This document shows positions 3,567 to 45,470 of a stretch of 61,021 bases of DNA, in pieces; position 1 is the stretch's first letter, and every line of letters begins with the position of its first letter. The DNA comes from an uncultured Rhodobacterales bacterium (GTDB taxonomy: Bacteria > Pseudomonadota > Alphaproteobacteria > Rhodobacterales > CAZPXZ01), in assembly GCA_964590405.1 (NCBI GenBank), contig CAZPXZ010000005.1, positions 1 to 61,021 on the forward strand, written 5' to 3'. Both the position numbers and the translations under genes were made by a program. A model generated the notes under the pieces. It saw only the letters and a program-made list of their open reading frames with translations, did not search any database and was not told the DNA's origin.

Positions 3567-4931
3567 ATGAAGGCAATCGCGGAAACCCTCGCCGACTGGG
3601 CCCTGGATCTCGACATCGGCAACATTCCGACCGACGTCGTCCGCACCCTTGGCCGCACGCTTCTCGACTCTGCCGGCCTGATAGTCGCTGGCCGAACTCG
3701 AGACTACGTGGCCGCAACCGCCGCAACCTGCGATGCAACCGGCGATTGCACGGCAATCGGACATGCACGCGGCTTCACCGCAAGCGATGCCGCGTTCGTC
3801 TCCGGCGTTGCAGCACATGGCGAGGACTATGACGATACCTTCGAGGGTACGCCTGTCCATGTCGGCTCGGTCATTGTCCCGGCGCTTCTCGCCGCCGCCG
3901 AGCAACATTCTCTCGGCGGGGAGCGATTGCTCGCGGGCCTGGCGACGGGAGGTGAATTATGCTGCCGCATGGCGGTGGTCGCACCAACCGCGATCCATCG
4001 GGCGGGCTTTCATCCCACCGCGGTGATCGGTGCCATGGGCGGCGCACTTGGCGTGGCAACCGCCATGCGTCTAACCCGGAAACAAACCGCGTCTGCGCTC
4101 GGCATTGCCGGCAGCATGGCATCCGGTGTGATCGAATACCTGGCAGAAGGAACATCCACCAAGCGCCTGCATCCCGGTTGGGCCGCCCAGTCGGGCCTCC
4201 GCGCAGCGGCACTTGCGGCAGCCGGATTCTCGGGGCCACGCACAATCTTCGAAGGCGAACACGGCTTCTACAAGGCCTTCGCGGAACCCGGCATTCCCCG
4301 CGACTACAACCGGCTTGCGGGAGGCCTCGGCGACACTTGGGAAGTCGCAAGCCTCGCCTTCAAGCCCTATGCCTGCGGAACCATGGCCCAGCCCTTCATC
4401 GATGCGGCCATTCGCCTGCGCACGGACATCCCGGATCCCGGACAGATCGAGGAGATCACCGCGCCTACTTCTGAAGCCGTTGTCCACCGCCTCTGGGAAC
4501 CGGCAACGGAGAAGGCAGCACCATCGACTCCGTACTCGGCGAAGTTCAGCGTGCCGTACTGTGTCGCGCTCGGACTGGTGGATGGAGCTGCCGGTCTGGC
4601 GCAGTTCAGCGAAGAGAAGATCCGCGATCCGGATCTCCGGTCGCTTGCCGCCAGAGTCCACTACAAGATCGACCCCTCCGACCCCTATCCGGAGAACTAT
4701 GTCGGATGCCTCCGGGTCCGGCTGTACGGAGGCAAGGTTCTCGAAGCAACACAGCCGCATCTCCGCGGTGGTCGCAGGGAACCGCTGAGCGATGCCGAAC
4801 TCGAGTCCAAGTTCCGCGCAAACACCGCGCTCGGCGGCTGGTCGAGGTCTCTCGCAGACGCCTTCCTGGCATTCACCCGTAGCGCTTTCGAAGCGAATGA
4901 CATGGCCGGACTTGCCCGGTTCCGCTGCTGA
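3567..4931 (+). CDS. MmgE/PrpD family protein (2-methylcitrate dehydratase-like)
   Basis: ORF 3501..4931. GGGAG lies 7 nt before the ATG at 3567 (MKAIAETLADWALDL). Length and N-terminal pattern are typical of the family (DTLG..lAG.., HGEDYDDT). Confidence 0.8.
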   Translation: MKAIAETLADWALDLDIGNIPTDVVRTLGRTLLDSAGLIVAGRTRDYVAATAATCDATGDCTAIGHARGFTASDAAFVSGVAAHGEDYDDTFEGTPVHVGSVIVPALLAAAEQHSLGGERLLAGLATGGELCCRMAVVAPTAIHRAGFHPTAVIGAMGGALGVATAMRLTRKQTASALGIAGSMASGVIEYLAEGTSTKRLHPGWAAQSGLRAAALAAAGFSGPRTIFEGEHGFYKAFAEPGIPRDYNRLAGGLGDTWEVASLAFKPYACGTMAQPFIDAAIRLRTDIPDPGQIEEITAPTSEAVVHRLWEPATEKAAPSTPYSAKFSVPYCVALGLVDGAAGLAQFSEEKIRDPDLRSLAARVHYKIDPSDPYPENYVGCLRVRLYGGKVLEATQPHLRGGRREPLSDAELESKFRANTALGGWSRSLADAFLAFTRSAFEANDMAGLARFRC

Positions 4932-19805: not shown

Positions 19806-20017
19806 TCTTTCGCCGACCACGCAGGCCATGAACCCGCGATTCGCCGCGCGCCACAGAACTGTTCGATCACCCCTGATCGTGCCGGACAAGGGGATCAATT
19901 GTGCCGACGGCGGCTCCCGGCATGCCCATCGCAAAGTCCGGCGGTCGATCGCAGACACCGGCAAGGAAGGGATCGTCGATGAGAGATCGGGATACAGCGT
20001 CAGCCGACCGAAAGAGC

Positions 20018-20479
20018 ACTACGGAGATCTGGCTTGGTATCGGGCGGATCCTGTGTCGCGCACTGTACCTTGCTTCCCCGCATGGTCTGCAGATTCTCTG
20101 GCACAATCACGACTTCGAATATGCCTTGCTGCCCGATGGTTCCCGTACCATTGATCGAATTCTGGAAGGTGGGAGCGCAGACGTGGGTTATGAACTCGAT
20201 GTCGGTTGGTTGACGCGAGCCGGTGTACGTCCGGAAGCAGAGTTTGAACGGTATGGCGACAGGATCTTCGCAATACAGGTCAAGGACACTGCCCCGGACG
20301 GCTGCCTCGAGGAGGATGGCTGGACCGCTACAGGCGACGGAATCATAGACTGGATCTCGTTACTGCCGAGCTTCGATCAGACACCGGCGACCCACATTGG
20401 CGTCGAACATGACAATCCTGCGGACTGGAAACGATTTGCTGAGCCATCCATCCGGTATGTGCGGCAAATCTGCCTGTGA
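20018..20479 (+). pseudogene. 5'-truncated sugar phosphate isomerase/epimerase (xylose isomerase-like TIM barrel)
   Basis: Only the C-terminal ~150 aa is recognisable: GLQILWHNHDFEY...YELDVGWLTRAGV...IFAIQVKD...GDGIIDW...IGVEHDNP. The N-terminal ~110 aa expected for the family is absent from this frame. Confidence 0.6.
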
Positions 20480-41925: not shown

Positions 41926-42681
41926 ATGAAGTGCTCAAGTCGTTGGGTGGCCTTCCTGCGCTCCTGTTCTGTGTTTACGGTGCAGATGTTGCTGCTGACA
42001 GGCTTTGCGGCTGCTCAATCCATCGAGGAAGCGCAGTCTGCGTATGCCGAGGGCCGGTTTCTCGAAGCGGCCCGGATAGGAGAATCCCTGGGGACCTCCG
42101 AAGGGCTTGCGCTGGCCGCGGAGTCGCTGACCCTCCACACCCAATATCAGGCTGAGGACGGCGACAAGGAGTCTCTGTTCGAAGATGCCGTCAAGTTGGC
42201 GAGAGAAGCCGTTCGCGCCGATACCGGGAATACATATGCCCATGTACAGGTGGCGCACGCCATTGGTCGGCTTGCTCAAACGGTCGGTTCCTTCGAGGCG
42301 TCGAATCGCGGATACGCTGAGCAGATTCGCGAGGCGGCGGAAACCGCACTTCGACTCGATCCCGACATGGCTGCGGCCCATGTCACCCTGGGCCGATGGC
42401 ATGCGGAGGTGGTCGGTGTTCTGGGTTCGTTTCTGGCCCGCATCACTTTCAAGGCCCGGGAAGAGGATGCCATCAGTCACCTGAACCGGGCGCTGGAACT
42501 TGCTCCGAACGTGAAAGCGGTACCACTGGAGTACGCGCTTGGACTCCTGATGCTGGATGAAGACAAGAACCGCGACAGAGCACGTGAATTTCTGCAACAA
42601 TCCATCGAGATACCGGCAAAGAACGCTTACGATCACATTCTCCATGATCGGGCGATTGAACACCTGAAAGAACTGGAGTAG
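41926..42681 (+). CDS. secreted all-helical (TPR-like) protein of unknown function
   Basis: 251 aa. N-terminal hydrophobic signal (VFTVQMLLLTGFAAAQS) and helical-repeat composition. I recognise no family. Confidence 0.55.
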   Translation: MKCSSRWVAFLRSCSVFTVQMLLLTGFAAAQSIEEAQSAYAEGRFLEAARIGESLGTSEGLALAAESLTLHTQYQAEDGDKESLFEDAVKLAREAVRADTGNTYAHVQVAHAIGRLAQTVGSFEASNRGYAEQIREAAETALRLDPDMAAAHVTLGRWHAEVVGVLGSFLARITFKAREEDAISHLNRALELAPNVKAVPLEYALGLLMLDEDKNRDRAREFLQQSIEIPAKNAYDHILHDRAIEHLKELE

Positions 42682-42986
42682 CGGGCGGCTGACTCTCTGA
42701 CTGCCTGAACCGGCTGACCTGCATACCGTGAATGCCTGTCCCGGTCGTACACCGGTCGAAAGGAGGAATGCTAGTCGACGGTCCAGGGACGCGATTTCTC
42801 GATGTCGCGGAGTCATCTGGCAGTATGGTCGTTTGGATCTGAAAGACCCTGATGGGGTCACGGCAACAGTTCGCACGTAGTCCTATTTCGGGTATATCCA
42901 CAGGAACATCCGAAGGATGGCCGCACTCGAATGTATGAAGAGTGTCGTACGATTGAACCATCCGTACCGCGGAGAGCGAAATTGCC

Positions 42987-44013
42987 ATGGCATTGAGGCT
43001 CATCGATTTTCTGAAGGAAGAAAACAGCGACTTGCCTGTTACCGCACGTATTCGGGATTACGAGCACCGCTACGGCGGCACTGTGCATGGCGGCCGGGAC
43101 GAGCGCAAGGCGAATTACACCGAATTCGTAAACAGATACTACGACCTGGTCACCGATTTCTACGAATATGGTTGGGGCCAATCCTTTCGTTTTGCGCCGC
43201 GCGCCTCGAATGAGAGCTTCGCAGCGTCGCTTGCACGCACACGAACACTACATCGCCCACAGGCTGGGCCTGGCGCCAGGCATGACGGTGGTCGATCTGG
43301 GTTGTGGGGTCGGTGGATCGTTGATCGAAATTGCCCGCTTCTCCGGCGCACGGATCGTCGGAGTCAACAACAATGCGCTTCAACTCGAACGTGCCGCAAA
43401 GCGGAGCCGTGAAGCGGGCCTGGATCATCTGACAGAGTGGCTGAAATGCGATTTCATGCGGGTCGATGCGCCGGATGGCCGGTTCGATGCCGCATACTCC
43501 ATCGAGGCGACCTGCTGTGCACCGGACAAGAGGGGTGCATATGGTGAAGCGCTCCGATTGCTCAGGCCGGGCGGTCATTTGGCAGTCTACGAATTCTGTC
43601 TCACGGACCGGTTTGACGCCGACGACCCGCATCACCTTCAGTTGAAGTCCGATATCGAGCACGGTGGTGGGCTGCCCGGAATTGACCGTCCCCATGAGAT
43701 TGAAGGTGCGATGCAAGAAGTTGGTTTCGAAGTGATCGAGGCCCGCGACCTGGCTGCCGAAGCACCGCCCGGCATCCCCTGGTACCAGCCCCTCGTTGGA
43801 TCCGGCCTGTCTCTTGCAACCTTTCGCAGTTCGGATGCAGGGCGTCGAATCACCCAGAGTTCGCTGTGGTTGCTGGAACGGCTGACACTTGTACCGCGCG
43901 GCACTACGCAAGTGTCGAAGCTCCTGAATCTTGCTGCAGTCAGTTTCGCGGAGGCCGGACGTCTCGGCATTTTCACGCCGATGCAGTTCTATTTCGCTCG
44001 CAAACCGGAATGA
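42987..44013 (+). pseudogene. sterol 24-C-methyltransferase (ERG6/SMT)-like SAM methyltransferase, split by a +1 frameshift at ~43239 (or a sequencing error)
   Basis: Frame 0 reads ..YYDLVTDFYEYGWGQSFRFAPRASNESFAASLAR. Frame +1 continues HEHYIAHRLGLAPGMTVVDLGCGVGG...VGVNNN...IEATCCAP...PWYQPLVG...IFTPMQFYFARKPE. By eye it is collinear with yeast Erg6 over essentially the full length. Confidence 0.8.
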
Positions 44014-44558
44014 CGGCGCAACACCTGATCGTCACAGACATTTTTCCGACGATACGTTAGCCTGCCCCAGCCAGGTGAACTCCCGGCACGCGCCTGGCGC
44101 CCGATCGGCAATTCGCAAGTGCCCTGAAGCGGCGCAGAAAGGCAAAGGGAATGTGCTTGCTGTGGCAGGAGGTCGCCACCGGTCATTGCAGGGAACCTGT
44201 CATGAACGGGGACGCAACAGTGCGGCGGCCAATGGCTGACGTCTGAGAATCATCGTTGAAGAGGACGGTTCCAGCACGAGCAGAGTTCGCGAACGCAGGG
44301 CGACGCAATCACGAAGGGACAGCATGCCCATTCTGACAATCAGTGGTGGTTGCAAGGACCGGGGAAACGACAGTGCCGGGAGCACAGCCGGGGAATGTCG
44401 GGCGAAATTGCCGTAAACGCGAGAGCGTTACTCTCTACTGTAGATATCCGATCAAGGGCGGACGGGCAACACTGGACACCGTCACTCGGCTTTGTCGGTT
44501 CGAGTTACTGACGCTGAGGCGGGACTGCGCCGAAGGGGCCACAAAGGGAGATATTCTG

Positions 44559-45470
44559 ATGGTGCATCCGGAGTCGCGCCAAGGGAAAGCAGCCGGAATT
44601 CAGGCATACCGGACTTGCGTGGCCCGGCCGGCGAACTGTGTCACCCGAGGACAATGCGGCACACACTTCAAGGCCGTCGCCTGGTTCCTGACGTTTCTGG
44701 TGGGGACAATGGCTGCGGTGAAAGGCGGTCATGCCGCTGACAGTGCGGACCCGCACCCGCCGACTCTCGTTGAATGGACATCCCGAGAGAGCGGTGAGCG
44801 TCTTTCCCAATCATCCCACATGGTGGATTTCTTTCCGCTCAGCAATCATTTCATCAGCCAGGACAACAGCATATTCTGCGGCCCGGTGTCCTCGGCAATC
44901 GTGTTGAACGCGCTTCGACTGGGAAGGAGGAAAGGGCTGCCACGGGATCGGGCATCCATCGCCGAAGATGAGATGGCCTGGCTTCCGCCAGGGGCCGACC
45001 CGTTCTACGGCAAGTACACGCCCAACAATGTTCTCGGCGAGCAGACGAAGACACGACGTCAAGTCCTGGGCAAGCCCATACTCATCGATGGCGAAGCGAG
45101 AAGCGACTTCGGTTTGCAGTTGCGTCAACTCGCGCAGGTACTGCGCAGCCACGGTCTTTCGGTGGTGACCCGTGTGGTGGGCGAAAGCGCTGAGTCGGCC
45201 GTCATTCGGCGCGAGTTGGTGGAGAATCTCGGGAGATCGGAGGATTACGTGCTGGTCAACTATGCCCGGAAAGCGCTGGGCCAGGCCGGCGGGGGTCATA
45301 TTTCGCCGCTTGGTGCGTATGACGAAGACAGCGATTCCTTTCTGATCATGGATGTGAACCCCAACCGGGCTCCCTGGATATGGGTTGAGGCGAACGACCT
45401 GATTGCTGCCATGCGGACGTTTGATACGGTTGAGAACCGCGGCTATCTACTGGTTTCGGAAGGCGATTAG
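44559..45470 (+). CDS. phytochelatin synthase-like (papain-fold glutathione gamma-glutamylcysteinyltransferase family) protein
   Basis: AAGGGAGA RBS and ATG at 44559. QDNSIFCGPVSSAIVLNAL (catalytic Cys context), GGGHISPLGAYD (His) and FLIMDVNP (Asp). An N-terminal hydrophobic segment suggests export or anchoring. Confidence 0.75.
   Translation: MVHPESRQGKAAGIQAYRTCVARPANCVTRGQCGTHFKAVAWFLTFLVGTMAAVKGGHAADSADPHPPTLVEWTSRESGERLSQSSHMVDFFPLSNHFISQDNSIFCGPVSSAIVLNALRLGRRKGLPRDRASIAEDEMAWLPPGADPFYGKYTPNNVLGEQTKTRRQVLGKPILIDGEARSDFGLQLRQLAQVLRSHGLSVVTRVVGESAESAVIRRELVENLGRSEDYVLVNYARKALGQAGGGHISPLGAYDEDSDSFLIMDVNPNRAPWIWVEANDLIAAMRTFDTVENRGYLLVSEGD

Follow-up and report, generated by a model that had tools for sequence, protein, structure and literature searches.

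A probable sterol C-24 methyltransferase pseudogene in an uncultured alphaproteobacterium

In a 61,021-nucleotide stretch of a contig from an uncultured Rhodobacterales bacterium, referred to here as the window, we found a gene of the ERG6-type sterol C-24 methyltransferase (SMT) family whose reading frame is broken by a single inserted base. It is probable, in our judgement, that this locus is a real and recently inactivated bacterial SMT gene in an uncultured alphaproteobacterial chromosome. By descent the gene is a member of the SMT family, within the bacterial branch, but as a working enzyme it most likely no longer is one. The case for inactivation rests on the indel, which a second assembly reproduced, and on the identity of the residue lost from the sterol-binding Region I, and not on bulk decay of the sequence.

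Anatomy and family identity of the divided gene

The first-pass annotation had read the two ORFs 42987..43412 and 43168..44013 as one full-length SMT homologue, and the repaired protein of 341 aa, which matches Sterol_MT_C, bore this out (Table 1). Frame 0 runs from the ATG at 42987 as MALRL...YEYGWGQSFRFAPRASNESFAASLAR, passes through YEYGWGQSFRF and ESFAASLAR, and then goes out of sense as far as the TGA at 43410-43412. Frame +1 reads ...HEHYIAHRLGLAPGMTVVDLGCGVGGS... on to FTPMQFYFARKPE and closes with the stop codon at 44011-44013. When one base was deleted at 43238-43240, a single ORF of 341 aa with no internal stop was obtained. The DNA alignment with the intact orthologue of locus L002 gave the exact position of the lesion, where GCACGCACACGAA in the window is matched by GCACG-GCACGAA in L002; the +1 frameshift by one extra base, which had been placed at about 43239, was thereby confirmed. 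In the protein alignment with the same orthologue, the N-terminus MALRLIDFLK pairs with MASRLIDILK. A continuous single reading frame for the whole enzyme is thus absent from the window copy owing to the +1 insertion at 43238-43240, and the 267-aa product of the gene caller (P0010) begins at an out-of-frame ATG at 43210.

Table 1. Features of the SMT locus and its upstream neighbour in the window
Feature	Position	Strand	Remark
Secreted TPR-like protein, intact, 251 aa, Pfam RMD1-3 type	41926..42681	+	Recurrent SMT neighbour
5' part of the putative SMT pseudogene, codons 1-84, original frame	42987..43238	+	ATG start codon at 42987
Region I (sterol-binding), YEYGWGQSFRF, residues 59-69	43161..43193	+	Codon 43188-43190 is CGT, Arg68
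Single extra base, +1 insertion CGC-A-CAC, frame shifted	43238..43240	+	Also in Logan contig L001
3' part of the putative SMT pseudogene, codons 85-341 and stop, frame +1	43240..44013	+	
Region II (SAM-binding), DLGCGVGGS, residues 103-111	43294..43320	+	Ser111 in place of the usual Pro (yeast P133)
Premature TGA of the frame-0 ORF, giving a 141-aa product with Region I only	43410..43412	+	
Sterol_MT_C domain, residues 278-341	43819..44010	+	PF08498, E 1.4e-20

In Pfam, the repaired protein matched the model Sterol_MT_C (PF08498), a resemblance well beyond chance: the score was 73.6 bits, where the cut-off is 21.7 (E 1.4e-20), and the match covered profile positions 3-66 of 66. The class I SAM-methyltransferase models Methyltransf_11, Methyltransf_25 and Methyltransf_31 were matched as well. 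The combination of Sterol_MT_C with Methyltransf_11/25 that had been anticipated from the letters of the sequence was thus obtained, and the motifs listed at that stage were all found in the window protein. BLASTP aligned the repaired protein with yeast ERG6 over 328 aa at 42% identity (E 1e-92). The numbering of the ERG6 sequence used was consistent with all the residue numbers given in the 2025 preprint on SMT residues. That preprint (Brown & Welander, 10.64898/2025.12.19.695621) lists 25 residues conserved in functional SMTs, and 23 of them were kept in the window protein, including the Region III Glu (E195) and the Region IV Gly (G217). Within the DxGxGxxGP motif of Region II, D103, G105, G107 and G110 were present and the last Pro was replaced by Ser111. 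As Ser was found at the yeast-P133 position in 17 of 118 close homologues and in 16 of 90 locus copies, this replacement is natural variation inside the clade, and little weight was given to it. The window SMT carries Gly at yeast position 249 and Tyr at positions 81 and 83, and its intact sister P0001 carries F81 and G249. According to the same preprint, G249 is necessary for propylation, F81 and F83 promote it, and the combination of F81 with G249 makes an enzyme a candidate for propylation (10.64898/2025.12.19.695621).

The inserted base and the Region I substitution

Logan contig L001 (run SRR22586461) was 100.000% identical to window positions 42399..44865, a stretch of 2,467 bases with the extra base included, and the truncated 267-aa product P0010 is encoded on it as well. 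The identity rules out a consensus or polishing error of one assembler, with systematic read error remaining if both assemblies share reads; if the window assembly and the Logan contig go back to one run, they are independent in software and not in data. No other certain frame break was observed among the approximately 42 window ORFs scanned, most of which gave full-length Pfam matches, or in the 9.3 kb that share synteny with L002 (33.4-42.7 kb), where all eight genes align at full length. When SMT genes were screened by tblastn in the first 87 fetched loci, none was found to have a frame break except the window's own DNA (L001); the match in L077 begins only at residue 51. An exact-pattern scan over the frameshift site with a gap of 0-3 nt found no intact near-identical allele in the JGI metagenome contigs, and the protein search yielded no homologue above 80% identity apart from the window's own product.

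The codon at 43188-43190 reads CGT (Arg68) in the window and CAT in L002, and it is equivalent to yeast H90 in the motif GWGxxFHF, which in the window reads GWGQSFRF. Region I is intact apart from this change. His was found at the H90 position in 118 of 118 close homologues and in 91 of 91 SMT copies of the fetched loci, and Arg in the window only. In yeast, H90 is one of five residues shown to be essential, and a role in substrate deprotonation has been suggested for it (10.64898/2025.12.19.695621). The His-to-Arg change is thus likely to be a second inactivating lesion; the first-pass annotation had noted the difference, as F(H/R)F, and had passed over its probable effect. Because singleton changes at otherwise invariant columns occur in 26 of 119 sequences, this argument rests on the identity of the residue and not on counts.

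The rate of evolution was compared between the window copy and its sister. In Tajima-type counts, amino-acid changes unique to the window exceeded those unique to L002 by 33:17 with L083 as the outgroup (p ~0.02-0.03) and by 32:18 with L084 (p ~0.05-0.065), and the excess was not significant with more distant outgroups. When each was compared with 40 other homologues, the window protein was more distant than P0001 from all 40, with a mean identity of 73.8% versus 77.6%. This excess of amino-acid change points to a modestly faster evolution of the window lineage than of its sister P0001/L002. The pairwise dN/dS between the window and L002 was 0.154 (dN 0.106, dS 0.69), and three-point branch values derived from the pairwise ones were ~0.18 for the window and ~0.12 for L002; most of the SMT sequence still looks constrained. 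At columns conserved to at least 97%, the window copy showed 2 deviations, where the mean was 1.1 and the maximum 5. Neither these deviations nor the singletons were outlying, and decay as judged by rare-residue counts was therefore rejected. The low overall dN/dS (0.15) suggests that the inactivation was recent and, together with the unremarkable rare-residue counts, that the gene was under selection until recently. If evolution after inactivation was neutral, the pseudogene stage would make up only a few percent of the branch.

The extra base could alternatively be an artefact of sequencing or assembly, or else a variant present in a minority, with an intact and functional SMT gene in the organism, and we consider this unlikely. 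A functional gene would agree with the dN/dS of 0.15 against the sister and the 23 of 25 signature residues retained, with a sole lesion in frame that amounts to one 1-nt indel, and with a start codon, a stop codon and a length that all fit the 341-aa family. However, the same base stands in the Logan contig, within 2,467 nt of complete identity, and the insertion site is not a homopolymer; the other window ORFs scanned and the 9.3 kb shared with L002 are without a certain frame break, the equivalent of the essential His90 has been lost as well, and neither the protein search nor the JGI pattern scan returned an intact near-identical allele. Between a pseudogene and an assembly error, which the first-pass annotation had left side by side, the identical second assembly, the lost Region I His and the rate excess lean to a real and recent pseudogene.

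It is also highly improbable that the gene is expressed in spite of the frameshift, whether by programmed +1 frameshifting, by transcriptional slippage or by the assembly of an active enzyme from two polypeptides. Such expression has no direct support, although both halves are still open and the N-terminal part has its start codon with a GGAG-like motif upstream. The site offers neither a slippery heptamer nor a homopolymer, the break separates Region I from the SAM-binding fold, and the catalytic His is mutated in any case. Nor is the frameshift conserved, since the screened loci are unbroken and the 118 full-length homologues are all ~330-365 aa long; programmed frameshifting in particular was rejected on the absence of a slippery site and of frame breaks in the SMT genes of relatives. 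Hardly more credible is a reading in which the protein is a generic UbiE/CFA-type methyltransferase of small molecules or lipids (hopanoids or fatty acids, for example) and no sterol enzyme at all. The window contains no sterol genes, and weak matches to CMAS, Ubie_methyltran and many NCBIfam methyltransferases were indeed seen, but the NCBIfam matches (UbiE, cyclopropane synthases, ArsM and others) all lay far under their cut-offs, for example 53 versus 550 bits. The protein has the C-terminal domain specific to SMTs along with Regions I, III and IV, close relatives (76-78% identity) were found inside sterol gene clusters, and members of the same bacterial group methylated desmosterol in vitro (PMC10070321). 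With Sterol_MT_C above its cut-off and the NCBIfam matches below theirs, the generic reading was rejected, and the assignment to an ERG6-type homologue in a bacterium withstood the comparison.

For the inactivated gene that we favour, the loss of function can be pictured from its intact relatives. These are class I SAM-dependent methyltransferases that bind SAM through Region II (DxGxGxxGP), and the aromatic Region I (YEYGWGxSFHF) holds the delta-24 sterol side chain and stabilises the carbocation formed by methyl transfer, its His being thought to take off the proton. The products of intact enzymes are 24-methyl(ene) sterols and, in some cases, 24-ethyl or 24-isopropyl sterols. In the window, the one-base insertion after codon 84 cuts the gene into two pieces, a 141-aa fragment that has Region I and lacks the methyltransferase fold, and a downstream frame that has the SAM-binding fold and the C-terminal domain and lacks Region I. 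With the Region I His now Arg too, neither product would be expected to methylate sterols, which suggests that side-chain methylation has been lost, or is being lost, in this lineage.

Relatives, genomic setting and the TPR-like neighbour

SMT homologues had been described in the first-pass annotation as rare in bacteria. Our protein search returned 2,913 relatives, and the best 120 were almost all intact proteins of ~341 aa with 60-80% identity. In bacterial and archaeal assemblies taken at one genome per species, 184 stretches encode a relative, mostly in MAGs of sponge symbionts; the taxa include Candidatus Poriferisocius, Binatia, Nitrospirales, Dehalococcoidia, Acidimicrobiia and Latescibacterota, and further MAG bins carry isolate labels (SB0664, RHO) and are apparently sponge-derived. 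With active enzymes published besides (PMC10070321), the emphasis on rarity and novelty was not borne out, and the argument from rarity is outdated. C-24 alkylated steranes, 24-isopropylcholestane among them, are taken as biomarkers of eukaryotes or sponges, and bacterial SMTs matter for such readings; the bearing on these biomarkers that had been proposed for the locus is thus relevant, but the point has already been published with active enzymes (PMC10070321). What the locus adds is that counts of SMT homologues in metagenomes can overstate capacity where some copies are dead, as this one probably is through its frameshift and the loss of the catalytic His. The gene caller still output a 267-aa 'Sterol_MT_C' protein for the broken locus, so automated counts can include dead copies.

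The window and P0001/L002 formed a sister pair in 95 of 100 NJ bootstraps. Because ERG6, on which the tree was rooted, is the sole eukaryotic sequence in it, closeness to the bacterial SMTs is drawn from the identity gap (at most 80% to bacterial MAG proteins versus 42% to ERG6) and from the context of the contig. The contig is prokaryotic, with bacterial housekeeping genes and an alphaproteobacterial UvrC, whose nearest named relatives are Rhodobacterales at ~62% identity and whose closer ones (up to 91%) were found only in metagenome assemblies; a protein of the Alph_Pro_TM family is encoded as well. The other functions of the window include CoA-transferase and hydratase genes, TldD/PmbA, UvrC, a sugar ABC transporter, PfkB kinases, SbmA/BacA, TRAP transporters and a phytochelatin-synthase-like protein. 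The last of these (44343..45470, + strand; PF05023, E 2.5e-37) lies directly downstream of the SMT. The tRNA and Rfam scans of the window gave two tRNAs only, neither of them relevant. The product of 19877..20476 (+ strand) matched AP_endonuc_2, a xylose isomerase-like TIM barrel, in its C-terminal half (profile positions 104-244 of 249), and the N-terminal half was absent upstream from all other frames; this ORF may be a truncated remnant and a second broken gene.

No oxidosqualene or squalene-hopene cyclase, squalene epoxidase, CYP51, Rieske/KshA_C protein or MMPL transporter was found among the ORFs scanned in the 61-kb window, in agreement with the earlier statement that squalene epoxidase and oxidosqualene cyclase are missing from it, and tblastn of the cluster proteins of L083 against the window returned the SMT itself only. 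Because the window is without sterol synthesis genes, the ancestral substrate may have been a host sterol or a sterol made by genes elsewhere in the genome. Relatives of the SMT were found in three settings. In L083, L085, L086, L088, L011, L006, L010 and L014 they lie in sterol clusters, where the partners are an amine oxidase, Rieske/KshA_C, a GPP34-P450 fusion, a second SMT, a DUF1329/TP_0789-like protein and an MMPL transporter. Others (L084, L087, L089) lie in mobile contexts, namely IS-rich regions and a circular, plasmid-like contig of 41 kb. The third setting is the window's own arrangement, which it has in common with L002. Synteny between these two stops right at the SMT stop codon, which places the SMT at a rearrangement boundary. 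The GC3 of the SMT and of its TPR-like neighbour (0.64 each) is the lowest in the window and only ~1.7 SD under the mean, and a foreign composition was thus not decisively indicated.

Several features of the related loci were recorded alongside. The P450 of the sterol clusters, presumably CYP51, is a fusion of 675-683 aa with an N-terminal GPP34 (GOLPH3-like) domain, and it recurs over several phyla (L083 6476..8503, L085, L086, L088, L006, L010 and L014). Among the mobile contexts, the 41,072-bp contig L087 (ena:ERZ25072670:ctg249105_58x_c, where '_c' apparently denotes a circular contig) carries an SMT 76% identical to that of the window, which adjoins an RND transporter, a Ser/Thr kinase and a sigma factor; the contig also encodes a ParA-like CbiA protein, an integrase and transposases. 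In L084 and L089, the SMT is flanked by IS elements, with a TrwC relaxase in L089, and the SMT clade of these three contigs looks mobile. Tandem SMT pairs were seen in L011, L041, L044, L045, L047 and L048, and a Binatia MAG (L003, 7641..11513) carries three tandem SMT paralogues and, after them, a C-terminal SMT fragment of 48 aa. In Nitrospirales MAGs (L004 7917..9801 and 4312..4758; L009 9424..9885), the MMPL homologue that adjoins an intact SMT is broken up into three frames, as seen in L004, and the Rieske homologue was found only in part, a hint that sterol-related genes decay repeatedly in the genomes of symbionts.

The SMT is immediately preceded by a gene for a protein of 251 aa, which has a signal-like hydrophobic segment at its N-terminus and gave weak TPR and RMD1-3 matches in Pfam. 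This gene is intact in the window, with a dN/dS of 0.28 against L002. Its family is small (247 proteins at E <= 1e-5), and homologues directly adjoin the SMT in L002 and in three Nitrospirales MAGs (L004, L007, L009) and lie within a full sterol cluster in L011, so that the adjacency occurs in at least two other phyla. An AlphaFold model of the protein, built on 45 sequences, reached a pLDDT of 91.9. The best compact match of this model in Foldseek was the TPR domain of PTPIP51 (7cc7; E 5e-7, TM 0.64/0.70), a domain which reportedly binds and transfers phospholipids. The model also matched 7T1S (E 1e-5, TM 0.61/0.66), as it did generic TPR proteins; 7T1S is BstC, a TPR-like sterol binder of Methylococcus capsulatus that binds 4-methylsterols and cholesterol (PMC10942540). 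A sequence profile of the TPR-like protein gave no similarity to BstC at the sequence level. Three homologues were sampled through the TPR search, independently of the SMT. One of them (L091, 3797..10022, in a 5.7-Mb genome) lies between dxs, ispH (LYTB) and a squalene/phytoene synthase gene, which is a second link of the family to isoprenoid lipid genes, independent of the SMT loci; another adjoins an amine oxidase, and the third has no lipid context.

The locus thus points to a recurrent, uncharacterised neighbour as a candidate sterol-binding partner, and we put forward the hypothesis, on the basis of the predicted fold, that the TPR-like protein may be a periplasmic binder of sterols or isoprenoid lipids. 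The pair of TPR-like and SMT genes is set among ordinary sugar-transport and housekeeping genes, and its TPR-like partner, BstC-like in predicted fold, is intact. A bolder proposal, which we regard as a long shot, is that the two genes form a small cassette that crosses phyla of sponge-associated bacteria and would serve to capture and alkylate host sterols in cells with no pathway of their own. The TPR-like protein would then be a new class of periplasmic sterol binder, with a fold analogous to those of BstC and the PTPIP51 TPR domain, and the window would show the cassette in mid-decay, with the SMT dead and the binder intact.

Comparison with known systems

The closest described enzymes are the bacterial SMTs of Brown, Olagunju, Giner & Welander (2023, Nat Commun 14:1859), who expressed 24 SMTs from metagenomes of sponge symbionts and the environment, most of which were active on desmosterol; three gave 24-isopropyl sterols, and consequences for the sterane biomarkers were drawn (PMC10070321). 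The window copy resembles them in its architecture of a class I methyltransferase with Sterol_MT_C and in its length of ~341 aa. Its identity to many proteins encoded in MAGs of the same kinds of organisms is 60-80%, it has Gly at yeast position 249 as most of the clade does, and some of its close relatives cluster with Rieske/KshA_C and P450 genes. It differs from them in being frameshifted, in having Arg for the Region I His and in carrying Tyr instead of Phe at positions 81 and 83. It also lies outside any sterol cluster within the 61 kb, with the TPR-like protein as its only partner; however, only 13 of the 24 published SMTs were associated with other sterol genes (PMC10070321), so that such an association is not strictly defining.

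An SMT from a Chlamydiae MAG, whose genome has no other sterol synthesis genes and for which modification of host-derived sterols has been suggested (PMC10070321), is alike in being encoded in a genome region without a de novo sterol pathway. That enzyme is intact and propylates in vitro, whereas the window gene is broken and is known from 61 kb of its genome. With yeast ERG6 (EC 2.1.1.41), the window protein shares Regions I-IV, the C-terminal FTPM...ARKPE and 42% identity over nearly the entire catalytic region. It differs from ERG6 in its bacterial host, in the lack of an N-terminal extension, in the changes H90R and P133S, in having G for D at position 249, and in its broken frame. Like the periplasmic BstC of M. 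capsulatus (7T1S; Zhai et al. 2024, eLife), the protein encoded at 41926..42681 is TPR-like, all-helical and secreted, and its gene adjoins sterol genes, but the two are only 16% identical in the structural alignment, and BstC falls in the TRAP T-component Pfam family whereas the neighbour matches RMD1-3. The SMT itself is of a known kind, and the window copy is a new, degenerate member of the bacterial SMTs and no new kind of system.
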